From the NCBI GenBank assembly GCA_963824555.1, contig CAWGPW010000016.1, forward strand, positions 291,109-355,108: a stretch of DNA of 64,000 nucleotides, in the 5' to 3' direction. Positions 3,968 through 39,893 of the stretch are shown one piece after another (the stretch's first letter is position 1; each line of letters opens with the position of its first letter). The stretch comes from an uncultured delta proteobacterium (lineage in GTDB: Bacteria; Myxococcota_A; Polyangia; Fen-1088). The translations under genes and the position numbers were made by a program. The notes below the pieces were generated by a model that did no database searches, had not been told where the DNA came from, and was given only the letters and a program-made list of their open reading frames with translations.

Positions 3968-5502
3968 CAGTTCACCTTGGCCACGGCTGCGGGTACGACG
4001 GGCACATCAGGGTACGATGCGATTTTGGGCTCTGCCCCCCTATGTGCTGTTTTCGACTCAAAATGTCCGATTTCAGCGTTTCCCTCGGGAATTGCAGCCA
4101 AAACCGCACCCCGACCACCCCCCGACACCCCCCCGACTTCGGCCCGACTTGGGCCCGACTGCTTTGCCTTCAGCCCCGACCACCCCGCCAATACCCCCGA
4201 CTTCTTTTCGTCGTACCCCAAGCGTCCGAGCTTGATCAGCCCCGACAGAAACGGCGTCCCGTCCTTGCCCTTGCCGTCGTAGGCCAGCTCGTAGACGAAG
4301 CCCTGGCCGCGGCTCCCTCGGTGCACCGCCAGGTATTCCAGATCCTCCAGCCGGGCAAGATGGATCTTGAGCTGCGTGTTGCCCCAGCCCGTCGCGTCCC
4401 GCACCTCGCGCCGGCTGAAACGAAAATCCTTCCGCTCCATCGCCAGCCGCTGGCACTCCGCCGTCACGTGCGCATCCACCAGCAGCAAAAGCCGCCGCGT
4501 CTGCGGCGGCAGCTCGTCGAGCGATCGCCCCAGCACCTGGTCGGCCAGGCGGTTCGCGACCGCGATGTCGTCGAGCGTGACCTCGATGTATTCGATGGCT
4601 TGCACGCCTTGCTGCGCGGTCTTCACCGGCCGCTGGTGCTGGTGAAGAAGCGCCACCGTCTCGATCAGCGTCAGGTATTTCATGTGGTCCCGCCGTGTTC
4701 GCGTCTGCCGATCCACAAACGTCAGATCACGGGCGTAGGGGTTCACCACCATCAGCGGACGCAGCAGGCGCTGCGCATTCCGGTGGACCTTCAGCACATC
4801 TTTCTTTCCCGCCCGGGCCAGCAGGCCTTCAAGCGTCTGCGCCTCGCGCTGGATCTCGTGGATCGCCTGCGTCTGCTCCCGGTCTTCGTCGACCGTCAGC
4901 ACCAGGCAGCGGTTCAGTAGCTCCTCGTCGATCTCGATCGCCGTCGTCGTCAGAAAGATCATCACCGGCCCTTCCACCCGGTACTCGTGCGTCACCAGCT
5001 TCCCGCTCTCGGGGTCTTTCCCCGTCGACGCGATGGTCAGCTCGCCCTCGCTCTGCAAGATCTTCAGCGCGTACGACGCCCGCGACGCGCCCTCTTCCTC
5101 GACGATGGCGAGGATCTTGTGCTTCAGGTTCGTCTCGCCCATGTAGAAGAGCGACTGCCCCGTCATCGCCGCGTACTTCACCCGTTCTTCCTCGGGCATG
5201 AAGGCCAGGACTGCTTCCATCAGCGACGATTTCCCCGCCGCAGACGAAGACTGGATCACCACCGCCAAGGGCTCGTCCAGCTTGCGCGACACCGCCGCCA
5301 GATAGCCGACGAGCTTGTTTGTCTCCTCGCCCACCACCCCGCATCGTCGGAAATCCTCGAGGATGCGGTCGAGCAGCCGCGGATTCTTCAGCAGCCCCAG
5401 CGCCGCTGCCGTCTCCTCGTCGGTGAGCCGGACCGCCGTGTCCTTCGGCGCCATCGCCGCGCGGATCTGCTGGTCCTGTAGCTGTTCCAGCTTCAGCAGC
5501 AC
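3967..5502 (-). CDS. P-loop NTPase / helicase-like replication protein associated with the primase
   Basis: 511 aa with Walker A QSSSAAGKSSL and a Walker B-like ILAIVEEEG. Its stop overlaps the integrase ATG (TGATG). The upstream frame reads through (…EEDVIKADLGKVLLKLEQ), so it may originally be fused to the primase. Confidence 0.7.
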   Translation of the reverse strand: MLLKLEQLQDQQIRAAMAPKDTAVRLTDEETAAALGLLKNPRLLDRILEDFRRCGVVGEETNKLVGYLAAVSRKLDEPLAVVIQSSSAAGKSSLMEAVLAFMPEEERVKYAAMTGQSLFYMGETNLKHKILAIVEEEGASRASYALKILQSEGELTIASTGKDPESGKLVTHEYRVEGPVMIFLTTTAIEIDEELLNRCLVLTVDEDREQTQAIHEIQREAQTLEGLLARAGKKDVLKVHRNAQRLLRPLMVVNPYARDLTFVDRQTRTRRDHMKYLTLIETVALLHQHQRPVKTAQQGVQAIEYIEVTLDDIAVANRLADQVLGRSLDELPPQTRRLLLLVDAHVTAECQRLAMERKDFRFSRREVRDATGWGNTQLKIHLARLEDLEYLAVHRGSRGQGFVYELAYDGKGKDGTPFLSGLIKLGRLGYDEKKSGVLAGWSGLKAKQSGPSRAEVGGVSGGGRGAVLAAIPEGNAEIGHFESKTAHRGAEPKIASYPDVPVVPAAVAKVN

Positions 5503-5522
5503 CTTGCCGAGATCTGCCTTGA

Positions 5523-7058
5523 TTACGTCTTCTTCACGCCCAGCTCGGTCGAGGCTTGCTTCAAAAAGATCGCCCGTTGCCGGGCGCCGTACACATCCAA
5601 GGTGTCCACGTGAAAATGCTCACCACGGCCGACGTGCAGGTTTACCTTCAGCGAGTCGAAGGCCGTGTTCTTGGACAAACCGCGCACCCGATACCGACGG
5701 TCGGCGAAACGGAAGATCACATCCTCGCCCTGGTGCTCGCAAGGCACGTCCGCCACCGGCACAGCCTCGGGCGCCGTCGTTTCCATGATCGCCACCGGCG
5801 CCGCCAGCGACTCCGGCGTGGTCTCCGTGGTGGGCGATGCCTCCGCGTTGGCGGCTAAAGAAGGATGGTCAGCCGCTGCCGTCATCTCCGTCGGCGCTTC
5901 GGCTGTCGCCGCGGCCGCGATGTCGAGCGCGGGCGCCTCCGGGCGCGCGCCCTTGCCCATGAAGACCGCGCTTTTCAACGCCAGCTCCAGCGACTTTGCT
6001 GCCGGCGTCACCTTGCACGCGTACTCGTTCGCATCCATGCCCCGAGGGAATTGCACCCGGTAGCACGAGATACCGGCGGCCATCAGTTGCTTGGCCACCT
6101 TCTCGGCGCCACGGTCGCCGGCCTCGTCGCGATCAAAAGCGATCAGCACCTGCTTCGTGCCGTAGCTTTTGAAAGCCGCCACGTGCTCGGTGATATGGCT
6201 TTCGATGCCATAGACCGAGGTCACGTTGCGGAAGCCGTGGCACCAGAAGGTCAGGGCATCGATCAGCGCTTCGCACAGGATGATCGACTTCGACACCCGC
6301 AAGGCTTCCCAGTTGAAGATCCCTCGGTGCGGGCCGGGCAAGTACATGTGCAGCGGCGTCCCCTCCCGCAGCCCTGGCGTGATCTTCCGCCCGTACATCC
6401 CGACCACGTTTCCTTCCTCGTCGAAGATCGGAATCACCACCGAGCCGTTCATGTGCTCGTGTCCGCTCTCGCGCAGCACGCCGAGCTTCTGCAGCCGCCC
6501 CCGGATCTCGCCGCCGGCCTTCCACTGCTTCATCGGCAGCCGCAGCCCCAGCGTCCGGTTGGCAAAGCCCAGCTTGAAGCGATCGATCATCTCCGACGAC
6601 TGCAGCCCCCGGCTTTCCAGGTACTTCAGCGCCTCCGGGCTCTGCTTCAGCGTCTCGTGGTAGTAGCCCACCACCTGCGCCAAGAGTTCTCGGTCGTCCG
6701 AATCAGCCTGCACCGGCGGCGCCAGCTTTCGCACTACGGACGTCTTCACCACGTTCGTCGACGGCGACGTCAAAGGCAGGTCGGCCCGCAGCAGCTCCAC
6801 CGCGTGCCGAAATGAAACGCCCTCGGCCTTCATCACCCAGTCGATCACCGATCCACCGGTCTGGCAGGCACCAAGGCAGTGCCAAAGGTTCTTCCGAGAG
6901 CTGATCACCAGTGACGGCTTCTTGTCGTCGTGGAAAGGGCACAGCCCGATCAAGTCCGCGCCGTGTCGCTTCAGCTCCACACCCCGCGCCTCCGCCAGCC
7001 GCTGGATCGAGACCTGGGCCTTGAGTCGTTCGAGTTCGTCTTCGGGCACACGCGCCAT
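5523..7058 (-). CDS. DNA primase, CHC2 zinc finger + Toprim
   Basis: CPFHDDKKPSLVISSRKNLWHCLGACQTGGSVIDWV is a CHC2 zinc finger. The Toprim-like region is ILCEALIDALT…IAFDRDEAGDRG. Trimmed to the ATG at 7058 (MARVPEDELERL); the track ORF extends to a GTG at 7163. Confidence 0.85.
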   Translation of the reverse strand: MARVPEDELERLKAQVSIQRLAEARGVELKRHGADLIGLCPFHDDKKPSLVISSRKNLWHCLGACQTGGSVIDWVMKAEGVSFRHAVELLRADLPLTSPSTNVVKTSVVRKLAPPVQADSDDRELLAQVVGYYHETLKQSPEALKYLESRGLQSSEMIDRFKLGFANRTLGLRLPMKQWKAGGEIRGRLQKLGVLRESGHEHMNGSVVIPIFDEEGNVVGMYGRKITPGLREGTPLHMYLPGPHRGIFNWEALRVSKSIILCEALIDALTFWCHGFRNVTSVYGIESHITEHVAAFKSYGTKQVLIAFDRDEAGDRGAEKVAKQLMAAGISCYRVQFPRGMDANEYACKVTPAAKSLELALKSAVFMGKGARPEAPALDIAAAATAEAPTEMTAAADHPSLAANAEASPTTETTPESLAAPVAIMETTAPEAVPVADVPCEHQGEDVIFRFADRRYRVRGLSKNTAFDSLKVNLHVGRGEHFHVDTLDVYGARQRAIFLKQASTELGVKKT

Positions 7059-30022: not shown

Positions 30023-30248
30023 GGTAAATCTCGGGGTCAGTCTAGAAACGAGTCCATCCAGGGGAGTTTATCCCCGATGTCGCGTTCTGCGAACATACTG
30101 GCTCGACACATACTGGCTCGTCGCAGTGGCCCAAAGTGCCTCCGGCGGCGCAGACAAGTGTTTCCGTGCTGGCGTTCCGGCGGCGAAAATCGCGATTTTA
30201 CGTCCGAACGGCGCTGCCTTGCCCTTCCGGTGGTTACCGCCACGCGTC

Positions 30249-30407
30249 TGGTCCCACTCCGAGGGTACTTTTCTGGTCCTCTGGTCCCACTCTTTCTGCT
30301 GGTCCCACTCCGAGGGTACTTTTCTGGTCCTCTGGTCCCACTCCGAGGGTACTCTTGAGGCAACTACCCCACTGGTCCCACTCCGAGGGTACTCTTGAGG
30401 CAACTAC
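30249..30407. repeat. Tandem array of TGGTCCCACTCCGAGGGTACT (4 full copies plus 1 partial) in 33-bp and 40-bp units
   Basis: Full copies start at 30249, 30300, 30333 and 30373, with a partial at 30282. Read directly. Confidence 0.85.
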
Positions 30408-30643
30408 TTCAGCGCCCGTCCGAGACTGGATGATAGGCTTACAGTTTTCGTGAAAGGCGTCGGTACCGCGACGACAAACGCGAAGGGGATTTCGGGGTCT
30501 TCTGGAAATGTGGCTCCTCGCCTTGCCCGTCTTGTGTGCGCATCCGATTGGCTCGGCAGTCTTTGGGCCGCAGCAACATTCAGGCCTGTGCCAGGCCGCG
30601 GTGGTGTCGCCTGGTCGCCTTCGAGGGGAGCAGTGTGCGCCGG

Positions 30644-31594
30644 CTATGCAGGTGCGGGATTCGGCGCCGGGTCTCGGGTTGCTGCCTCGACTGCCTCGGC
30701 AGCTTCGCAGGCAACTCTGGCGATTTTCCGCATCCAGTAGGTTCCAAATGGAAACAGCACGTTTGCGAGCCCAGCGACGTGGGCCAAGAACGCCGCTCGG
30801 TACTTCTCGAGAAAGCCGCGATTGCGAAGCAGGGCCTCGATCCTCGCCCATTTGTTCTTGGCGGCGATTTGCGGGCTCATCTGAAAGCGAGGCGCGTGGC
30901 CAGACGGACAATCAGACGGCTTCTGGCGGAGAAGGCGTTCGCGGCCAAGCACGGTAATGCCTTGGGTCGTTCGTCTTTGCCGGTGGTCGGCCTCTTTGGC
31001 CCGGACGCGCTCGGTGATGAGGGTGGCCCACTGGCTTGACTCGAGATCCTCGAAGCCATGAGGCCTGGCAATGCGCAGGCTGATGACTTCGGGCATGCCA
31101 CCGTCGTCGCGGAAGAAGTGCTTGGGGCGCGTGGCGGTGATGCATCCACCGGAGAGGGTGGCGTCGAACGTGGCGACGCCTGGCCATTCCTCGACGGTGT
31201 CGACCAAATCGGCCGCGGAGGGATTGGTAAAGGCGTAGGTCATCTTCTCGATGATGTCGTCGGCTTCGACCAGCCTGACAACCGAGGTCGCTTCGGAAGA
31301 CCAGAAGTTCTCGAATCGGCCGAGGTGCGCGTTTTGGCAGCGGGCGAGAAGGCCGTGGAAGTGCTCGGTGAAGATAGGGAAATTGCCGTCGGGGTCGTGA
31401 ATGCCTGTGTGGTGATGGTTCGACATGGCGACCGAGAAGGTGACCTGGACATTCGCACGTTGGGCAGCCAAACCGAGGCAATAGATGAAGGCGTTGTTCG
31501 TGTCCTCGTCGGGGTGCAGGAAGAAGCGCCGCTCGGAACAGCGGCGGGTTATCATGTAGTCACAACCGGGCACGACTTGGCGAGGGAGGGTCAT
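30644..31594 (-). CDS. Y1 HUH transposase (IS200/IS605-like or REP-associated tyrosine transposase)
   Basis: MTLPRQVVPGCDYMITRRCSERRFFL…, an HUH-like MSNHHHTGI, and a catalytic-Tyr region MTYAFTNPSAADLV (Y-x3-NP). Confidence 0.75.
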   Translation of the reverse strand: MTLPRQVVPGCDYMITRRCSERRFFLHPDEDTNNAFIYCLGLAAQRANVQVTFSVAMSNHHHTGIHDPDGNFPIFTEHFHGLLARCQNAHLGRFENFWSSEATSVVRLVEADDIIEKMTYAFTNPSAADLVDTVEEWPGVATFDATLSGGCITATRPKHFFRDDGGMPEVISLRIARPHGFEDLESSQWATLITERVRAKEADHRQRRTTQGITVLGRERLLRQKPSDCPSGHAPRFQMSPQIAAKNKWARIEALLRNRGFLEKYRAAFLAHVAGLANVLFPFGTYWMRKIARVACEAAEAVEAATRDPAPNPAPA

Positions 31595-31952: not shown

Positions 31953-32855
31953 ATGCCCAGGATGTCAACGGCCGTCGTGCCGATCTTCATAGTCAGCTTG
32001 ACTGGGTTGGCTTGTACCGACCAATCGGGCCTGAATTTGCGTGATGATGGCGGTGGCCAGCTTGCTGGAGGAAGTGGCGGCAATGCCGGCGGCGGAGGCG
32101 GGAGCCAGTCTGGTAGCGGAGGAATGCAATCGGGCTCGGGTGGAATCAGTGGCACCGGGGGATGTATCCCGCCTCCGTGCGCTTTGCTCGATTGCCCGTA
32201 CGGCTATGCGCCATCCAGTTCTCCCTGCGGCTGTGGCCAGTGCGTGCCGCCACCCGACGCTGGCGCCGGTGGAGCGGGCCTGGGGGGCGCCATCGGTTCC
32301 GGCGGGACGGGCCCGGGCGGGACAAGCTCTGGTGGAGCGGGAGGCACGACCTCATGCTCCACGGCCGTGTGCTTCTTGCCCGCCTGCGTGGGGGGCGAGT
32401 TTCAGCCGAACCCGGACGACACCTGTGGTTGTCCCATCTGTGTCACCGACGGCGGGGCGGCGATGGACGGAGGGAAGCAGGACGCGGCGGCCGATAGCAG
32501 CCCTCACGTCTGCGGCCCGGTCTGCGACATCTACTGCCAATACGGCAATGTGATGGATCCCTCGGGTTGCCCGACTTGCCAGTGCAAACCGGCTCCGACA
32601 TGTCCAGCCGGATCGCACGCGGTGACCTGTTCCACCGCCACGGCGTGTACGCTCGACTGCAGCGAGTATCAACGCGGGGCCGACGGCTGTCAGCGGTGCG
32701 CGTGCAAAACGCCGGCAACCTGCGCGCTTCCCGGAGAGGCCGCATGTATCTACTGTCCGTTCGGCTACCGAGCCGGTCCCGGCGGGTGCATCACCTGCTC
32801 GTGCGCGGATCCGCCGATTGGTTGCGCCGCCGATTCCAGCGACGCTGGTGCGTAA
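31953..32855 (+). CDS. Cys-rich lipoprotein with five antistasin-like modules
   Basis: AAGAAGGAGAT SD sequence and lipobox LTGLAC. Repeated C…G…D/P..GC..C.C modules: CPYGYAPSSSPCGCGQC, CVGGEFQPNPDDTCGCPIC, CQYGNVMDPSGCPTCQC, CSEYQRGADGCQRCAC, CPFGYRAGPGGCITCSC. Confidence 0.7.
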   Translation: MPRMSTAVVPIFIVSLTGLACTDQSGLNLRDDGGGQLAGGSGGNAGGGGGSQSGSGGMQSGSGGISGTGGCIPPPCALLDCPYGYAPSSSPCGCGQCVPPPDAGAGGAGLGGAIGSGGTGPGGTSSGGAGGTTSCSTAVCFLPACVGGEFQPNPDDTCGCPICVTDGGAAMDGGKQDAAADSSPHVCGPVCDIYCQYGNVMDPSGCPTCQCKPAPTCPAGSHAVTCSTATACTLDCSEYQRGADGCQRCACKTPATCALPGEAACIYCPFGYRAGPGGCITCSCADPPIGCAADSSDAGA

Positions 32856-32965
32856 TTCTCTTTTCGTCACGTCCCCAAGGGCATTGGGGCCCTTTGCTGT
32901 GATCGCTGTCGCTTTGATTCGATTCGCGGCAAGGGTACCATCGTGGGTATGCTTGGGAGCAGATC

Positions 32966-33583
32966 ATGAAAGAGCGAGATATCCGAGACCACATCAACGC
33001 CTTTCTCCGAACTAGGCTCCAGAATTTGGTGGTGCCCGCTTCGATGGGGATCGGTCTTGCCTTGGGGGCGTGCAACACTTCGGCGCTGCAATCCAACCTG
33101 GACGGCTCCGGGGACGCTTCAGCCATCCAGCCCAGCTCCGGTGGTACCGGTGGTGGCTTGACCGGGGCGGGTGGATCGCTCTACGGGCTCGGAGGATCGA
33201 CGAACCCCGGCCATGGGGGATCCGGTGGCTCCGCGGGTGCCGGCGGTGCCGCTGGTTCGGGTGGTGGCTTGGCCGGGACGAGCGGAACGGCCTACGGGCT
33301 CGGAGGATCGACAATCCCCCGCTCGGGCGGTGCCGGCGGTGGCTTGACCGGAGCGGGCGGCATGGTTTACGGAACGGGAGGATTCAGCTCCCCTCGCTCG
33401 GGTGGTGCCGGTGGCGGCTTGGCCGGGGCGAGCGGAACGGTGTATGGAATGCCGGGATTCAAAGACGCCGGCCCGGACAGTGGTGGCAACGCGATCGATT
33501 CTGGGGTCATTCCCGAGGCGGGCAAGGGCGAGGCGGGGCACAGTCCAGACATGTCGCCCCCCGACGGATTTGTGAATGAGTAG
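32966..33583 (+). CDS. Gly-rich repeat lipoprotein, candidate radical-SAM substrate
   Basis: Lipobox LALGAC. Four repeats of GG(A/T)GGGL(T/A)G(A/T)(G/S)G.(L/A/V)YG(L/T/M)(G/P)G(S/F)…, each with a single Tyr (aa 73, 110, 135, 160). Ends 43 nt before the rSAM gene. Confidence 0.7.
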   Translation: MKERDIRDHINAFLRTRLQNLVVPASMGIGLALGACNTSALQSNLDGSGDASAIQPSSGGTGGGLTGAGGSLYGLGGSTNPGHGGSGGSAGAGGAAGSGGGLAGTSGTAYGLGGSTIPRSGGAGGGLTGAGGMVYGTGGFSSPRSGGAGGGLAGASGTVYGMPGFKDAGPDSGGNAIDSGVIPEAGKGEAGHSPDMSPPDGFVNE

Positions 33584-33626
33584 ACCGTGCTCTTCGGCGC
33601 CGTCCCGCGCTTGATCGAGAAGAACC

Positions 33627-34769
33627 GTGATCGAAGTTTTGCAGCAGGTCGGATTCTTTCCCCACACTTGCGTGTGGGAGCTGACACTCGCGTGCAATAT
33701 GCGGTGCAAGCACTGCGGCTCCGTAGCCGGCAGGCGGCGTGCGGACGAGCTGTCGCTCGACGAGTGTCTGCGTGTGGCTGGCGAATTGGTGGCGCTGGGA
33801 TGCCAGCGCATCACCCTGATCGGCGGCGAGCCAATCCTCTACCCGGGCTGGCACGAAGTGGCCAGGCGTCTGGTCGAGCTGGGAGCTCAGGTCAACATGA
33901 TCTCGAACGGCCTGATCTGGTCGCCCAAACATCTCGACCAAGCGAAGGAGGCGGGCCTGTGCGCGGTGGGCTTCAGCCTCGACGGTTTCGAGAAGGAGCA
34001 TGACGCGTTCCGGGTGCCTGGCTCGTTCGAGCGGGTGGTGCACGCCATCGACATGTGCGTGGCGGCCGGCATGCGGACGGCGGTAAACACGACCATCAAC
34101 CGGCTCAATCAAGGCCTCATCGAGGAGATGCGCACCTTCTTGATGGAGCACGGGGTTTTCGCCTGGCAACCGCAGCTGGCCACCGCCGCGGGAAACATGG
34201 GAGAGCACCGCGATCTGCTCGTGCGTCCAGAAGATTTGTTGTGGCTGGTGCCGAAGATAGCGGAGCTGTGCCGGATCGATTGTCCGGAATTCGAGATCTG
34301 CGTAGGCCACAACATCGGCTACTTCGGCAATCCCGAATCGGCCCTGCGCGCCGCGGACATCGCCCTCCCCTTCTGGCTCGGGTGCAGAGCCGGTTGCCAA
34401 GTGATCGGGATCGAGAGTGGCGGAGATGTGAAGGGCTGTCTGTCCTTGCCCTCGTCGGTGCACGGCGAGCACCGCTTTGTCGAAGGCAATGTGAAGGAGA
34501 AGAGCCTGCCCGACATTTGGAATCGCGCGGATGCTTTCGCGTACAACCGGCTCTTCCAAGAACGGCAACTGCGCGGCTTCTGCCGCGTTTGTCGCTTTCG
34601 CGATGTGTGTCGCGGCGGCTGCAGTTGGGCTATCTATGCCCAAGGTGGCGGCGGAAACGAGCAGTGCTTCTATCACCAGGCGGTCAAGCACGGGCGCTTC
34701 GATCTGCTCGCCGAGGTGCCGACCGCGGACGAGAAGAGTTACTTCGAGAGCAGCATACCGGCGCGTTGA
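33627..34769 (+). CDS. Radical SAM enzyme with a full SPASM domain (peptide/protein-modifying maturase type)
   Basis: CNMRCKHC (Cx3Cx2C). SPASM elements: CQVIGIESGGDVKGC (…Gx4C) and CRVCRFRDVCRGGC (Cx2Cx5Cx3C), plus a distal Cys (NEQC). Confidence 0.9.
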   Translation: MIEVLQQVGFFPHTCVWELTLACNMRCKHCGSVAGRRRADELSLDECLRVAGELVALGCQRITLIGGEPILYPGWHEVARRLVELGAQVNMISNGLIWSPKHLDQAKEAGLCAVGFSLDGFEKEHDAFRVPGSFERVVHAIDMCVAAGMRTAVNTTINRLNQGLIEEMRTFLMEHGVFAWQPQLATAAGNMGEHRDLLVRPEDLLWLVPKIAELCRIDCPEFEICVGHNIGYFGNPESALRAADIALPFWLGCRAGCQVIGIESGGDVKGCLSLPSSVHGEHRFVEGNVKEKSLPDIWNRADAFAYNRLFQERQLRGFCRVCRFRDVCRGGCSWAIYAQGGGGNEQCFYHQAVKHGRFDLLAEVPTADEKSYFESSIPAR

Positions 34770-34776
34770 CCTCCGG

Positions 34777-37707
34777 CTACCGCCGCACGAGCAGTTTCAA
34801 CTTCCCGATGCCCAAGCCGGGCCGGTAGTGGGCAAGCAGAAACTGCTGCAGCTCGGGAAAGCCGGCCAACGACTGGACACTGTCCAATCTGTCTCCGGTC
34901 ACGAACGGGAAGACGTCCTTCTCCTCCACGACGACCACCGAGGGCGGGTGGCTCGTCAGGTCGGCCATCAATCGCGGGCGATACCGGCCCCCCCATGCAA
35001 CCCGTTGCGGGACATCGTAGATGTAGCGGGTGGAGGATGACCGTCCAGCCAAGTCGTAGATGACGGGTTCGAATCCCCACACGTAGATCGGTTGGTCGGG
35101 AGGTGTATTGCGCGCAATCCAGCTCGCGATCCTGCGGCTGTCGCCCGCGCTCACGTCCGACGCCGAATGAAGACGGTCCATCAGGTCTTGGCGTGGCTCG
35201 TCGTGACTGAAAACAGCCTGCACGCGCAGCCCGTTGCGCGCCCACAAGGAGGCGCGATAGGGCGGAAGAATGCGTTCGTCCTTGAGCAACACAAGCACGC
35301 CTACCAGCGCAAGCACGGGCAGAAGGTGCGTCCGCAGGCGAACCCACAGCTTCCAAGCTCCCCACGCGGCGGGCAGCCCCAACAGGAGAACGACCGCGGC
35401 ATAGTGATACGGGAAGAATTTGGCTTGGAGCGCGACACCGATGATGGGAAAGAATGCGACGGCAAGGACATGCGCCAGACCAAGACGCTCGCGCGTGGCC
35501 AAGACGGGCAGCGAGACCGCGAGCAGAACGCCGAAGGCATCGTGGCGGGAGAAATCGAACAACGACTCGTCCCACGCGCGCGCGAGGAGTCCAAGGGCGT
35601 CCTGATCGTAATGTCCAAGCCTGGTGTAACTCGGCACGAACCCGAACAGCGTTTCGATCATCGCGGGCATGGCCCCCTTCGCGGCGATGTAGGTCGCGAC
35701 AAGCGCCATGGGGACCGCCGTCCCAAGGGCGACGAAGAGAAGCGGGCCCACGCTGGCTCGCAGCCGCGCGAAACGCCTGCCCGACCCGGCCGCGCGTGCA
35801 TGGCCAAGCAAGAAGGGCGTCAGCACCACCGCTCCGGCGAGCTGGGGTTTGAGCACGCCCGCCACTCCGTAGGCGACGCCGGTCAACAGCCAGAGCAGCT
35901 TCTGCGCGGTGCCGCCACCGCTTGGCAGGGTGGCGCGCTCGCTGGTACATAGGACCAGCGACCAGATCAGGAAGAAACCCGCAAAGCCTTCGGGCTGTGC
36001 CGTGCTCCAGAATTCGAGCTGGACGTAGGCCATGACCGACAGAGCAACGGCGGGCAGGGCCGGGCGCCACGAACCAACCCAGCGTTTGCAGAGCACGATG
36101 AACGCGGGAAAAAGAGATAGAAGCCCGATGGCCTCCACGATGCGGATGCCGTGCATGCCTTGCCCGAACAAGAGACGAGCGACGGCGTAGACGAAGAAGA
36201 TCCCCGGCGGCTTGAAATCCCAGGCATCCCGGTAGGGCGCTCCACCTTCGATCATGGTTCGCGCCACGACGGCGTAGATGCCCTGGTCGCGGCCATACTG
36301 AAAGAGCAGAAGGTGAGCGATGAGATAGAGCGATAGCAGGACACAGGCGACCAGCGCCGCCGCTTCCAGACGCGCCTCGACGGCGCGCGGGAGCGGAATC
36401 AGCCATCGGCCAAACCGCCGCACGCGCTCGGCATAGGCCCGCATCGACGCTTCGCCCCCCAGCACGACCACCCAGACCACACACAAGAGCGCGGCACCCG
36501 CAAACACGTAGGAGGCAGTCAGCAGCGCCACCGCATGCCTCAACCCACGGATTTCGAAAGTGCTGGCCATGAGGACGGCCGAAAGCACCAGGGTGCGCAC
36601 GACGGCGCTCCCTGTTTCGGCGACGGCGGGCGGCAGAGCCGCGAGTCGCTGGTAGAGCAACGCCATGCAGAAGATGGCCGGGGCGAACTGGTGCTCCCAG
36701 GCGATGGGCGCCGCCAGGGTCGCAACCAGCCAGGCGAGGCCCAAGACATCCGCGCGCAAGCTCGCGTCGCGGGGCAGGGCCCGAATCCGGAACGCGAGGT
36801 AGAGGAGGCTCAGACCGCCGAGGCCGAGCGAAACCATACGTGCGGCGACCCCAAGTGGCGCGATCACGAAATGGGCCGCCAATTCCGGGTGGAGCAAACG
36901 GGCCAGGAGCCCATTCCACGATTGGTTGGGATAATAGGCGTAGCCGGACGAAAGCGCCGGCAATACCCGAGTCAGGTAATCCACGTAGGCAGACCAGCCG
37001 GCGTAGACGACCGACAGCAGGGCCAGCACAAGACCCGACAAAAGGGTGCTGACCAGCGTTCGGCGCGCGTGCCAATAGAGGAGCGGCACCATGAGCACAA
37101 GAGCGGGGTGGATGGCGACCGCCAAGGCCAGCGCGATCCCGGCGGCAATCTCCTTTCCCTTTTGCATTGCCACCAGGCTGGCGCCAAGCAGCACCGTGAT
37201 GAGCACCGTGGTCTGGTCGTATTCGATGGCGCACATGAGCGGCTGCCAGAGCAGCAACACGAGCGCGAGGACGGCGGCCCGCCGAGCCGACGCGAAGGTC
37301 GAGGCGCGGTGGTTGGGCCGCACAAGGAGCATCAACAGCACGAAGATCGCCGCGAACAGACAGCGATTGGCAATGAACAGCCAAGATAGCGCGACATAGG
37401 GCGAAAGACCCGCCAACGGCCGGTAGAGCAAGGCGGAGAGCGGCGCGGAAGTGAAGGACGGCCCCTCGGCAGGGATCGTCGCGTACATCGGCTGCCCCCG
37501 AGAAACGCGCAAGGCGGCCTCGGCGGCTGGCCAGACGTCGCGGATGTCCGTGCCTTCGATCCGCCAAAGGCTGACCAGCGCGTCCCATCCCGGGTGGCTT
37601 TCGCTGCTGACGCGGGTTTGGACGAATCCCAACATGACGCCCAGCAGACCGAGGAAGAGCGCTTGGCGCATGAAGGTACGCTGACCCAACCAGGCCCCCC
37701 TCATCAT
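34777..37707 (-). CDS. Large polytopic membrane protein, apparently two GT-C-type glycosyltransferase-like modules fused, plus a C-terminal soluble domain
   Basis: Track ORF 34777..38256 trimmed to ATGATG at 37707, which overlaps the upstream stop. More than 20 hydrophobic segments. The second half begins YGRDQGIYAVVARTMIEGGAPYRDAWDFKPPGIFF (ArnT/PMT-like). Family assignment is by resemblance only. Confidence 0.7.
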   Translation of the reverse strand: MMRGAWLGQRTFMRQALFLGLLGVMLGFVQTRVSSESHPGWDALVSLWRIEGTDIRDVWPAAEAALRVSRGQPMYATIPAEGPSFTSAPLSALLYRPLAGLSPYVALSWLFIANRCLFAAIFVLLMLLVRPNHRASTFASARRAAVLALVLLLWQPLMCAIEYDQTTVLITVLLGASLVAMQKGKEIAAGIALALAVAIHPALVLMVPLLYWHARRTLVSTLLSGLVLALLSVVYAGWSAYVDYLTRVLPALSSGYAYYPNQSWNGLLARLLHPELAAHFVIAPLGVAARMVSLGLGGLSLLYLAFRIRALPRDASLRADVLGLAWLVATLAAPIAWEHQFAPAIFCMALLYQRLAALPPAVAETGSAVVRTLVLSAVLMASTFEIRGLRHAVALLTASYVFAGAALLCVVWVVVLGGEASMRAYAERVRRFGRWLIPLPRAVEARLEAAALVACVLLSLYLIAHLLLFQYGRDQGIYAVVARTMIEGGAPYRDAWDFKPPGIFFVYAVARLLFGQGMHGIRIVEAIGLLSLFPAFIVLCKRWVGSWRPALPAVALSVMAYVQLEFWSTAQPEGFAGFFLIWSLVLCTSERATLPSGGGTAQKLLWLLTGVAYGVAGVLKPQLAGAVVLTPFLLGHARAAGSGRRFARLRASVGPLLFVALGTAVPMALVATYIAAKGAMPAMIETLFGFVPSYTRLGHYDQDALGLLARAWDESLFDFSRHDAFGVLLAVSLPVLATRERLGLAHVLAVAFFPIIGVALQAKFFPYHYAAVVLLLGLPAAWGAWKLWVRLRTHLLPVLALVGVLVLLKDERILPPYRASLWARNGLRVQAVFSHDEPRQDLMDRLHSASDVSAGDSRRIASWIARNTPPDQPIYVWGFEPVIYDLAGRSSSTRYIYDVPQRVAWGGRYRPRLMADLTSHPPSVVVVEEKDVFPFVTGDRLDSVQSLAGFPELQQFLLAHYRPGLGIGKLKLLVRR

Positions 37708-39476
37708 CGACGCCTGAGCCGCGAGAGCGCCCGTCGAAACTGCCCAAGATCGATGGCCGAGCCCTGCCGCACCCACATCCCGGCGTCGATGGGCTTGTAC
37801 CCGAGGCTGCTCAGCTCCGAGCGCACCGCTAGGCCCTGATCCGCGGTGAGAAACCATGGCGCCTGAACGACGTCCGGTCTGAGCCTGCCCACGCTGTAGG
37901 CGTAGTCCCACTTCGTGTGCCCAGGGTAAAAGGGTAAGTGCGACGGGAGATGCGCGATCACCGGGTCGTTCTTGCCGAGCAAGTCGACGGACTGCGCGTG
38001 CGAAAAATAGGGAATCGCTCCGGCCGCGACCACGGCGATCGAGGCGTGCGAATCGAGCGCTTCCCGCAGGGCAAGTCCCGTGCGCGTCAACGTCCCGTCG
38101 TCGCCGATGCTGTATCCGTTCTCGGACAGCCAGCGCGAGACGGGTGTTCCGTCGATGGCAACCAACAGACCAAGCGACATGAGGACGGGAATCAGACCGC
38201 CGCGCAAACGTCCCGTCTCCGAGAACCGCCTGAACAGGTAGGAGCCCAACAGCCAAAGGGCGACGATCTCCACCGCACCGAACGGCACCGGCGCTTGGGC
38301 CAGACCGGCGTCCGGGGCACCGCTAGATCCGACCTTGACGACCGTCGCCAGGCCGACGGCGGCGGCGCAGGCGAGCAGGGCTGCCACTGCGGCGCGCCCG
38401 CCGAACGTGCACCGCGCGATGTTGGCCAGACCGGCGGACGCCAGAATCAAGAGAAGCGGGACCAGCGGGGTGACGTACCGGTTGCTGTAGAGCATCCACT
38501 CCCAGGCATCACCCCCGACAAACACCGAATAAATCGCCGCGGTCACCACGAGGATCGCCAACAACAGCGGCTCACGCGCCGGCCCCCGACGCGGCAGAAA
38601 CACGAACGCGGCGGCAACCGTGGGGGCGAGCAGGTGCGCGATCTCCAATTCCGCAAGGGCTTTCAGCCCGCGGCCAAGGCGCGCCCCCAGCGCGATCCCC
38701 GTCATCTTGAGGTAGTAGGTGTTCGGAAGTAGTGCGTGGTAATAGCTTTCGCGAAAGGCAGCCACGGCCGCAAGGGGAATCACGATCGCAGTGGCCAGAG
38801 GGATCCCGAAACGGTAGCGCTCGGTGCAAGGCAGGACAGCCACCAGCCAGAGCGCGATGACCGCCACCAGCAGGGTCGCATCATCGCGGGTGAGCTCGGC
38901 GGCGGCGAACAGCACACACAGGACGGCCACGTCGAGCGGTCGGTGATTCCGCTGGATCATGAGCGCCGCGAGGGTCGCGGACGAGACCAGGAAGGTCAGC
39001 AATCCGACCTCCATCCCACGCAGCGTCCAAAAGACGAGTGGATAGTAGAGCGCCGTCAGCGACATCGCGAGAAGCATCGAAAGACGGCTTCCCGTCAGCA
39101 GCAGCGCCAGCTTACCCACGACAAGAACATTCGCGATCAGAAGCACGGCGCCGGTGACCATCACGGCAAGCGAAATCGTAGGCTCGGGCAAACGAAGAAG
39201 ATGGAGCACCGTCATCCACAACGTCCACAAAAGGTTGGAATACCCCTCCACCGGCGCCGCGTGGGGGTTCCACGCAAGACCGAGCCCGTCGGCAAGATTC
39301 CGTGCGTAGCGCATGGAGATCATCGCGTCGTCGAAGAGCGAGAAGTACGTTCGGCCATCCACTTCGAACGCCGATCGCGCGATGAAGACCACCGACGCGG
39401 CGGCGCTCGCCAAAAGGATAGCTGCGGCCACCAAGCAGAGTGTGACGCCGCTTGGACGAGGCGACTTATCGGACAT
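37704..39476 (-). CDS. Polytopic GT-C-like membrane protein
   Basis: N-terminal TM followed by FSLFDDAMISMRYARNLADGLGLAWNP (DD motif in the first loop). Many TM segments and a C-terminal soluble domain. ATG at 39476. Confidence 0.65.
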   Translation of the reverse strand: MSDKSPRPSGVTLCLVAAAILLASAAASVVFIARSAFEVDGRTYFSLFDDAMISMRYARNLADGLGLAWNPHAAPVEGYSNLLWTLWMTVLHLLRLPEPTISLAVMVTGAVLLIANVLVVGKLALLLTGSRLSMLLAMSLTALYYPLVFWTLRGMEVGLLTFLVSSATLAALMIQRNHRPLDVAVLCVLFAAAELTRDDATLLVAVIALWLVAVLPCTERYRFGIPLATAIVIPLAAVAAFRESYYHALLPNTYYLKMTGIALGARLGRGLKALAELEIAHLLAPTVAAAFVFLPRRGPAREPLLLAILVVTAAIYSVFVGGDAWEWMLYSNRYVTPLVPLLLILASAGLANIARCTFGGRAAVAALLACAAAVGLATVVKVGSSGAPDAGLAQAPVPFGAVEIVALWLLGSYLFRRFSETGRLRGGLIPVLMSLGLLVAIDGTPVSRWLSENGYSIGDDGTLTRTGLALREALDSHASIAVVAAGAIPYFSHAQSVDLLGKNDPVIAHLPSHLPFYPGHTKWDYAYSVGRLRPDVVQAPWFLTADQGLAVRSELSSLGYKPIDAGMWVRQGSAIDLGQFRRALSRLRRR

Positions 39477-39509
39477 TGAATGGCCTGGTCCCAATTCCGG
39501 CAAGTGGAA

Positions 39510-39893
39510 CTAGCGCGCGGGAAGCGGACGAGGTGGAGGCGGGGGTGGCGGCAGAGGCGGCGGCGGCGGCGGTGGCAGTGGTGGTGGTGGTGGCGGCGGC
39601 GGCGGCGGCGGCGGGGGCAAGCGGGGGGGCGGGATTGGCACGCCGGCGCTGGGGGTTGGTCGGTATAGCTGCGGCGGCCGCTCGTTTTGCGTCCGAGGCT
39701 GCGCACTACCCTCGGCCTTCGGGCCGCGCGTAGCCGACGGCCACGCCCACAGGACGATGCCGACAGCCACTAGTCCCAAGGACAACCCGGCGGCCTTGCC
39801 CGCCGCGGGCCATCGCATGAGCAGCCTGGAAACGGCGGTGATGGTCAACCCGAGACCACCGAGCACGACGAGCATGATGCCTAGGGATTGCAT
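39510..39893 (-). CDS. Small membrane protein with a C-terminal poly-proline tail
   Basis: Two hydrophobic helices, then PPPRLPPPPPPPPPPPPPLPPPPPPPLPPPPPPPRPLPAR. ATG start. First gene of the GT-C operon. Confidence 0.6.
   Translation of the reverse strand: MQSLGIMLVVLGGLGLTITAVSRLLMRWPAAGKAAGLSLGLVAVGIVLWAWPSATRGPKAEGSAQPRTQNERPPQLYRPTPSAGVPIPPPRLPPPPPPPPPPPPPLPPPPPPPLPPPPPPPRPLPAR
39513..39645. repeat. (GGY/CCR)n trinucleotide tract encoding the poly-Pro tail
   Basis: The plus strand reads runs of ggc/ggt/ggg triplets for about 110 bp. Confidence 0.8.

Follow-up and report, generated by a model that had tools for sequence, protein, structure and literature searches.

A lipoprotein gene with repeated tyrosine sites and the gene for a splicease-like radical SAM/SPASM enzyme form a conserved cassette in uncultured Polyangia

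In a 64,000-nucleotide stretch of contig CAWGPW010000016.1 from an uncultured delta proteobacterium of the Polyangia (assembly GCA_963824555.1, positions 291,109 to 355,108 of the forward strand), hereafter called the window, three open reading frames (ORFs) follow one another on the plus strand: a gene for an antistasin-like, Cys-rich protein, a gene for a predicted lipoprotein punctuated by four tyrosines, and a gene for a radical S-adenosylmethionine (rSAM) enzyme with a SPASM domain (Table 1). All three, which a preliminary description of the locus had presented as a three-gene operon, are present and co-directional; 110 nt separate the first from the second and 43 nt the second from the third, and a Shine–Dalgarno-like GGGAG stands upstream of the ATG of the second. 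The conserved element is a cassette of the last two genes, that is, a lipoprotein precursor gene followed by the gene for a dedicated rSAM/SPASM maturase, and it is this cassette with which we are concerned here. No second copy of the substrate gene or of the rSAM gene was found in the window.

The precursor begins with a positively charged n-region, an h-region, LVVPASMGIGLAL, and a lipobox, L-G-A-C36, and it is a predicted lipoprotein under the sequence rule used here (lipobox [LVI][ASTVIG][GAS]C). In its relatives the lipobox reads LVGC, LSGC or VGAC, and Cys36 is invariant. The mature part of the window protein contains 34% Gly and exactly four tyrosines, at residues 73, 110, 135 and 160, every one of them in the context [L/A/V]-Y-G; at least four such sites were obtained in only 12 of 100,000 composition-preserving shuffles. 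The lipobox and the four tyrosines are as previously described. Tandem Repeats Finder recovers the 75-nt (25-residue) period in 2.8 copies, and the first repeat is more divergent. The precursor matched none of the NCBIfam families and no Pfam entry, and contains no GDL domain; its 29 homologues are all without annotation.

The enzyme has a Pfam Radical_SAM domain (E = 4e-25) and a SPASM domain (E = 9e-8), and 26 members of its clade share without exception the residues C23-x3-C27-x2-C30, G266-x4-C271, C319-x2-C322-x5-C328-x3-C332 and, further on, C347, so that the Cx3Cx2C motif and complete SPASM signature first read from the translation are confirmed. In an AlphaFold model (predicted local distance difference test score 75.9, predicted template modelling score 0.81), a partial TIM barrel is confidently placed and the cluster-binding loops are of low confidence. 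The nearest folds are those of PqqE, SkfB, SuiB, CteB and anSME, the generic architecture of SPASM peptide maturases, and searches of the PDB by sequence and by fold returned only such generic maturases and no splicease structure. The rSAM core starts at about residue 10, leaving no room for an N-terminal recognition element (RRE) of the kind associated with peptides that are made on ribosomes and modified after translation (RiPPs), and the C-terminal tetratricopeptide-repeat (TPR) region is also absent. Most of the 813 database homologues are of a TPR-fused form; P0045–P0116 and the enzyme of locus L084 (4001–5629), of about 540 residues, are 57–62% identical to the window enzyme. More distant homologues of 510–530 residues have a TPR-like tail (residues 364–490 in that of locus L079).

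Table 1. Features of the cassette and of the gene preceding it; positions are those of the window.
Feature	Position	Strand	Basis
Precursor gene: 205-aa pre-lipoprotein, four xYG sites in Gly-rich repeats of about 25 aa	32966..33583	+	ORF; homologues upstream of rSAM genes
Predicted lipoprotein signal peptide: 36-aa N-terminus MKERDIRDHINAFLRTRLQNLVVPASMGIGLALGAC (charged n-region, h-region, lipobox LGAC)	32966..33073	+	Conservation
Tyr site 1, GSLYGLGG (Tyr73)	33173..33196	+	Conserved in close homologues
Tyr site 2, GTAYGLGG (Tyr110)	33284..33307	+	Inside 75-nt tandem array 33253–33461
Tyr site 3, GMVYGTGG (Tyr135)	33359..33382	+	Tyr-site and repeat analysis
Tyr site 4, GTVYGMPG (Tyr160)	33434..33457	+	Best-conserved site in sub-clade
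rSAM/SPASM enzyme gene: 380 aa, splicease-like superfamily, no RRE or TPR	33627..34769	+	Pfam, NCBIfam, tree, model
Antistasin-like Cys-rich predicted lipoprotein gene: 300 aa, outside the conserved cassette	31953..32855	+	Pfam Antistasin (PF02822)

In order to see which of these genes stay together, we scanned related genomes, one per species, and found 13 loci with an rSAM enzyme 65–92% identical to that of the window, all in metagenome-assembled genomes (MAGs) of Myxococcales/Polyangia; the next identities in that scan were 44% or lower. In each of the 13, the gene directly upstream of the rSAM gene is a homologue of the precursor gene, that of locus L009 being frameshifted and that of L013 lacking its N-terminus. 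The same arrangement is found in two clades at about 60% enzyme identity, that of L081 (60%, without TPR) and that of L084 (59%, with a C-terminal TPR fusion), and the pairing is kept down to 58–60% identity while every other neighbour changes. Leader types track the enzyme clades, and no other conserved small ORF was found in the related loci. In these loci the lipoprotein and rSAM genes have been kept together, as the proposal of a tyrosine-punctuated partner would have it, and the antistasin-like gene has not. Given this co-conserved partner, the earlier phrase ‘protein-scale RiPP-like modification’ of an exported protein is a fair description, and the sequences make it likely that the enzyme modifies the Tyr sites of the lipoprotein.

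The features conserved in the substrate are the leader and the Tyr sites, not the richness in glycine noted in the preliminary description. The 107 Tyr sites in 14 substrates yield the consensus [L/V/K/R]-Y-[M 53, G 15, S 14, A 11]-A-P-M-P-D; nearly every tyrosine in these proteins falls in a site, and other aromatic residues are rare. The residue after the tyrosine (+1) is Gly in 45 of 53 cases in the close homologues of the window protein, and more distant orthologues have Y-M, Y-S, Y-A, Y-L or Y-I, in the pattern x-Y-[M/S/A/L/I]-A-[P/Q]-hydrophobic-P-D-A. Over the orthologous substrates, the Tyr sites are retained at Gly fractions of anywhere between 0.04 and 0.36: the linkers are Asp/Ala/Ser-rich in L012 (4% Gly), Thr/Gly-rich in L011 (14% Gly), and Pro-rich or Asp/Ala-rich in further members of the family.

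The leader holds a set of invariant residues, M1, E3, R7, F13, L14, P24, A25, G28, G30 and C36, which are shared even by clades with mature parts that defy alignment. When 1.84 billion cluster representatives were searched by phmmer with the first 50 residues, 74 clusters were returned at E ≤ 0.001; the family is large, comes almost wholly from uncultured Polyangia and is unannotated. We infer that the conserved, charged n-region probably doubles as a recognition or activation leader for the rSAM enzyme. A resemblance to PlpY or to Nif11 leaders was considered and rejected, the shared ‘AFLR’ being a chance match (shuffle p = 0.1–0.9). One protein from the leader search, P0176 (506 residues), continues from the same leader and a short run rich in Gly into a Cys-rich region and RCC1-like repeats, so that the conserved leader also occurs on a large protein with folded domains.

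Two further arrangements were observed among the close loci. In L013 (5100–5940, from a long-read MAG), the gene for a Ser/Thr kinase that has a transmembrane segment at its C-terminus continues directly into the leader-less, Gly-rich Tyr-motif ORF upstream of the rSAM gene, which is either a frameshift artefact or a kinase–substrate fusion. In L006 (2884, minus strand), L007 (2490, minus strand) and L010 (507, minus strand), a second leader-bearing Tyr-motif lipoprotein paralogue lies 2.5–5 kb from the cassette on the opposite strand and has no adjacent rSAM gene of its own; it is rich in Pro and Asp, has PPYM sites and carries an L081-type leader. One rSAM enzyme may serve several substrates in these genomes.

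We placed the enzyme by scanning it against NCBIfam, which gave 69 matches, the best 25 of them all scoring at least 64 bits. The two leading families, TIGR03913 (the GDL-motif peptide-associated maturase; 263 bits) and TIGR04103 (nif11-class peptide maturase 3; 240 bits, E = 2e-71), align over their full length and are followed by TIGR04133 (129 bits) and then by heme, pyrroloquinoline quinone, mycofactocin and sactipeptide enzymes. GrrM, XyeB, FxsB and anSME (TIGR03942) do not appear among the best 25. That the enzyme is an rSAM/SPASM protein of the peptide-maturase kind is supported. Its identity to a Nostoc TIGR04103 enzyme is 35.3% over 362 residues, and that to an Azospirillum TIGR03913 enzyme is 37.6%; between the two reference families themselves the identity is 48%. 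A tree built by neighbour joining (45 sequences, 343 columns, 50 bootstraps, TIGR04133 as outgroup) shows the window clade as monophyletic at 100% and sister, at 70%, to the TIGR04103/TIGR03913 branch, with the whole Tyr-site superfamily separated from the outgroup at 100%. Judged by its sequence, the enzyme falls within a splicease-like superfamily of which the PlpX spliceases (TIGR04103) and the TIGR03913 maturases are members; the view that the locus is not a described system has to be modified to that extent.

PlpX was the first splicease, and is found with Nif11 or NHLP precursors and a small protein, PlpY. It is the founding member of the SPASM subclass IPR026482, Nif11-class maturase 3 (PMC11002830). 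Spliceases excise a tyramine equivalent (C8H9NO, −135.06 Da) at XYG, giving protease-inhibiting ketoamides, and the splicing works on proteins too (PMC11414181, PMC11626197, PMC10533398, PMC9811515, PMC10849128). In the Rheinheimera products, the ketoamide is required for micromolar-to-nanomolar inhibition of elastase, chymotrypsin and cathepsin B (PMC11626197). The cyanobacterial spliceases require the Y protein; in binary systems without Y, an α-helix of the leader occupies the same enzyme surface and acts as the activator (PMC11414181). A survey for enzymes accompanied by YG motifs, as summarised in PMC10849128, gives pairs in 189 genera, with 27 confirmed. The splice tag of PlpXY is P-I-R-P-(M/G/L)-Y-G-L-P-I (PMC10533398), and the window sites, G-x-[L/A/V]-Y-G-[L/T/M]-[G/P]-G, resemble it. 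Our search of the literature on TIGR04103 and TIGR03913, DUF1843 and ketoamide lipoproteins in Myxococcota found nothing on this clade, although the family may already be covered by the survey just mentioned (Scott et al. 2022, Chem 8:2659).

As a proxy for the characterized spliceases PlpX, PcpX and RhaX, we used an annotated locus on a Nostoc plasmid, in which a Nif11 precursor ending GGRGSIALYGLPPELF is followed by the ‘nif11-class peptide radical SAM maturase 3’ and by a 71-residue PlpY-like ORF. The last residues of that precursor are ALYGLPPELF.

The Tyr site extends well beyond the window clade. At TIGR03913 loci (in Azospirillum, Burkholderia and Aureibacter), the neighbours are DUF1843 peptides or DUF1842–DUF1843 proteins of about 200 residues with one Tyr site each (MLYGGAM, KPYGVAI, PMYMATM, TPYGVAI, AMYGVAI, PMYGVGL, VLYAAGI, PMYAASI and QPYGAGI). 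Homologues of the window enzyme at 35–44% identity, whose NCBIfam profile is the same as that of the window enzyme, lie downstream of precursors with 2–10 (P)LYG(I/V) sites in Methanosarcina, Bacteroidales, Bacillota, Spirochaetales, Desulfobacterales and Acidobacteriota. Two or more xYG sites occur in an upstream ORF at 28 of 67 distant loci, compared with 4 of 2,364 control ORFs from the same loci. The Tyr site, x-Y-[G/A/M], is the sole neighbour feature common to the whole superfamily.

In four of the substrates at distant loci, a peptidase-inhibitor domain of the chagasin family (I42) exceeds the Pfam threshold; one substrate ends in a dockerin-like tail. The chagasin proteins (L060 4949–5761, L065 4865–5812, L066 5164–5937, and L079 4645–5202 with 5286–5876) are 185–315 residues long, with the I42 domain at the N-terminus and x-Y-[G/A/N/M] sites at the C-terminus; their position beside distant rSAM homologues links the superfamily to protease inhibition at the protein level. 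The protein upstream of a Spirochaetales rSAM homologue (L019 807–1382; 191 residues) has a transmembrane segment, PIYT, PEYGI and PLYGI sites and a dockerin-like C-terminus, and is another protein-sized candidate substrate.

Set against the known systems, the cassette is most aptly called a spliceotide variant, being neither a GRRM system nor a wholly unknown kind of system. With the spliceotide loci (PlpX/PlpY/PlpA, and PcpXYA in Pleurocapsa; RhaX/RasX and RcsX in Rheinheimera) it has in common a substrate gene directly upstream of the enzyme gene, an enzyme that finds its best matches among curated families in the PlpX family and its sister, TIGR03913, and a site of the form hydrophobic-Y-G-(L/I/V/M)-(P/G), which may be compared with PIRP-M-Y-G-L-PI of PlpA and ALYGLP of the Nostoc precursor. 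A precursor with XYG splice-site motifs adjoining the enzyme is what we find in the window, where there are four; several sites per precursor occur in other branches as well, and the window system is binary, with no Y-like ORF, as in Rheinheimera. It differs in that the substrates of the window clade are 200–290 residues long with a predicted Sec/lipoprotein signal, where the known ones have Nif11, NHLP or double-glycine leaders, in that no dedicated protease or transporter gene lies near the window cassette, in that the clade has 4–12 sites set in low-complexity linkers, and in that most relatives carry M, S, A, L or I after the tyrosine rather than Gly. The enzyme is also only about 35% identical and scores under the curated cut-offs. 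Spliceotide chemistry is put forward for this clade by homology.

The TIGR03913 system is the top-scoring curated family and shares the x-Y-[G/A/M] sites, including Y-M, and some substrates of about 200 residues. In contrast, its substrates have a single N-terminal site and a helical GDL domain, with no signal peptide and no repeats, and its enzymes, extended at the C-terminus, are of about 490–516 residues; the window enzyme, with 263 bits, falls short of the family cut-off of 592, and the GDL domain is missing from its partner. The (P)LYG(I/V)-repeat systems (L014–L080) likewise have repeated Tyr sites directly upstream, but in peptides mostly of 40–110 residues with double-glycine leaders and peptidase-containing ATP-binding-cassette transporter (PCAT)-type exporters, with no lipoprotein signal, and most of their enzymes are of about 510–530 residues with the TPR-like tail. 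In the TIGR04133 systems of Bacteroidota and Treponema, an rSAM/SPASM gene likewise lies directly downstream of a gene for a ‘radical SAM-associated putative lipoprotein’. The window enzyme is 27–28% identical to TIGR04133 enzymes and scores 129 bits against a cut-off of 425, and the TIGR04133-associated lipoprotein of Parabacteroides is folded, β-rich, unrelated and without Tyr repeats. The anSME enzymes, with a similar overall fold, provide a precedent for a cytoplasmic rSAM/SPASM enzyme that modifies a signal-peptide-bearing protein before export, although they act on a folded enzyme at one Cys or Ser, which becomes formylglycine, and not at repeated Tyr sites; an anSME assignment is rejected on the NCBIfam ranking, and no sulfatase gene adjoins the cassette.

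From these comparisons we propose the following pathway, its chemistry being taken by homology from the spliceases. The precursor would be made in the cytoplasm with its 36-residue signal peptide, the charged n-region of which would also be the leader that the enzyme recognizes or is activated by. The rSAM enzyme would work ahead of export and at each Tyr site, [L/A/V]-Y-G-[L/T/M] in the window, excising a tyramine equivalent (C8H9NO, −135.07 Da per site and about −540.3 Da for four) and joining the carbonyl of the residue before the tyrosine to the former carbonyl of the tyrosine. Because the superfamily contains spliceases, the shift to be expected is −135.07 Da per site rather than the −2 Da anticipated previously. 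The unfolded, low-complexity chain would then pass through Sec, be lipidated at Cys36 and lose its signal peptide to signal peptidase II, whose cleavage would replace that of a RiPP leader protease, so that the pathway could do without a protease or transporter of its own. What results would be a flexible chain, anchored by lipid and bearing four ketoamide warheads here and up to about 12 in relatives, plausibly a multivalent inhibitor of serine or cysteine proteases in the cell envelope.

The sequences show the pairing of the genes, the conservation of the sites and the placement of the enzyme; the chemistry, the leader role, the sequence of events and the inhibitor function are inferred. We regard this pathway as a whole, tyramine excision included, as having an even chance of being correct. 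Several points weigh against it. The enzyme scores well below the equivalog cut-offs (240 against 725 bits for TIGR04103, besides the TIGR03913 shortfall given above), its identity to the reference families is only 35–38%, a distance at which rSAM/SPASM chemistry can differ, and it lacks the TPR extension that many homologues have. The comparison with PlpX, PcpX and RhaX is an indirect one, made through the Nostoc locus, and the subclass IPR026482 is taken here to correspond to TIGR04103. The n-region of the leader, about 20 residues, has no significant similarity to the PlpY-like protein or to a Nif11 leader, and the precursor is called a lipoprotein by sequence rules. Published spliceases ‘normally’ target YG, whereas the relatives mostly have Y-M, Y-S, Y-A, Y-L or Y-I; Y-M and Y-A also occur beside bona fide TIGR03913 enzymes, whose own chemistry is putative. 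Finally, the inhibitor role is an extrapolation, and the only local hint of such a role, the antistasin-like neighbour, is not conserved.

The most serious competitor keeps the cassette and its Tyr sites and changes the chemistry: the enzyme might form a three-residue cyclophane (Tyr ring to the β-carbon of the +2 residue) or another Tyr-centred C–C or C–O crosslink, or might oxidize the Tyr β-carbon, with shifts of −2 or +14/+16 Da per site. The fixed Y-x-x register (Y-G-L/T/M in the window, Y-M/S/A-A in relatives) would suit an aromatic-X-X cyclophane, and the prevalence of residues other than Gly at +1 in relatives, unlike the published splice sites, together with the shortfall from the splicease cut-off, points the same way. 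However, the maturases of that type that were looked for, GrrM, XyeB and FxsB, fall outside the best 25 matches, where the splicease-related families score 240–263 bits, the N-terminal RRE is absent, the window clade groups with the TIGR04103/TIGR03913 branch, and +1 residues other than Gly are also found at TIGR03913 loci (PMYMATM and VLYAAGI). We think a different radical chemistry rather unlikely, at somewhere under one chance in three.

The gene upstream of the precursor raises a second alternative, in which all three genes act as a unit and the antistasin-like lipoprotein is a co-inhibitor or target alongside the modified repeat lipoprotein. Five six-Cys modules can be made out by eye in the antistasin-like protein, in agreement with the preliminary description, but module 3 alone exceeds the Pfam Antistasin threshold (32 bits), modules 4 and 5 falling below it (18 bits each) and modules 1 and 2 giving no match. 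The three genes are co-directional and closely spaced, with no convincing terminator detected between them (the hairpin after the first gene does not reach significance, z = −1.5); the two upstream products are both predicted to be lipoproteins and have Gly-rich linkers, and a protease-inhibitor theme would agree with the published spliceotides and with the chagasin fusions. Against this, tblastn found no match to the antistasin-like protein within 6 kb of the rSAM gene in about 90 related loci, including the syntenic L001, the gene has a strong AAGGAG ribosome-binding site of its own, and it adjoins a transposase-like gene and a cluster of repeats. Since the antistasin-like gene is absent from the related loci, the conserved unit consists of two genes, not three, and the three-gene operon is rejected as that unit; a functional unit of all three seems improbable, and co-transcription in this genome is possible, though not conserved.

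The sequence just upstream of the antistasin-like gene contains four direct copies of a unit starting CTGGTCCCACTCCGAGGGTACT (30248–30416), two of them 45 nt long and identical, and a 316-residue ORF on the minus strand (30644–31594) with a weak match to a repetitive extragenic palindrome (REP)-associated tyrosine transposase (RAYT) family (NF047646, 30 bits against a cut-off of 80). Together these may be a RAYT/REP-like element. Downstream of the cassette, on the minus strand, are a large ORF resembling a GT87-family (PF09594) membrane glycosyltransferase (34777–38256) and a 599-residue polytopic membrane protein (37704–39503). These two genes are syntenic with L001 only, the closest relative (rSAM 92% identical), and are accordingly placed outside the cassette. 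Beyond them, a 127-residue ORF (39510–39893, minus strand) has an N-terminal hydrophobic segment and a long poly-proline run of about 30 Pro.

The lipoprotein might instead not be the substrate at all, the enzyme acting on some other peptide, protein or cofactor and the adjacency reflecting shared regulation or genome history. The modification is so far read from sequences, and the enzyme has no recognizable peptide-binding domain, whether RRE or TPR, both of which would be compatible with this view. It is nevertheless very improbable, since it accounts poorly for an adjacency that outlasts every other neighbour, for leaders that track the enzyme clades, for the lack of any other conserved small ORF and for a Tyr site that is the only neighbour feature shared superfamily-wide. 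A GRRM-type pair of GrrA-like protein and GrrM-like enzyme, to which the locus had been likened, is scarcely credible: an rSAM/SPASM gene beside a repeat protein with one aromatic per repeat is only a superficial likeness, the Gly-rich look is confined to the window, the orthologous substrates of L012 and L011 lack it, no GrrA-type or other NCBIfam model matches the substrate, and the enzyme ranking that leaves out GrrM leaves out the triceptide enzymes XyeB and FxsB too, for which there is besides no room for an RRE.

Returning to the splicing pathway, what would distinguish it from the known spliceotides is a Sec/lipoprotein signal where those have a RiPP leader, a core of protein size and low complexity with multiple sites, a relaxed +1 position in relatives, and a compact enzyme without TPR or RRE. 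We tentatively suggest, as a joint proposal to which we give distinctly less than even weight, that a spliceotide pathway has been moved onto the general lipoprotein route, with the Sec/Lsp n-region as RiPP leader and signal peptidase II as leader protease; that the result would be the first known lipoprotein backbone with multiple α-keto-β-amino acids, a lipid-anchored, disordered ‘poly-warhead’ protease trap on the envelope or vesicles of Polyangia; and that residues other than Gly (M, S, A, L or I) would be accepted after the excised tyrosine.

To our knowledge, the cases of backbone splicing described to date are small secreted RiPPs and engineered proteins. If the pathway proposed here is correct, it would be a natural case of splicing on full-length exported lipoproteins, at up to a dozen sites, in which an ordinary signal peptide takes over the function of the leader and the splice-site rule extends past Y-G, and it would offer protein engineers a compact, 380-residue, single-component splicease with a short repeat tag. 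If the chemistry differs, the cassette would offer a well-defined way into a radical modification of Tyr that is new, and at least 74 clusters of substrates (at 50% identity) could be compared. For the organisms themselves, the pathway, if true, would mean a previously unrecognised class of envelope-anchored protease inhibitors in the Myxococcota of soil and peat.

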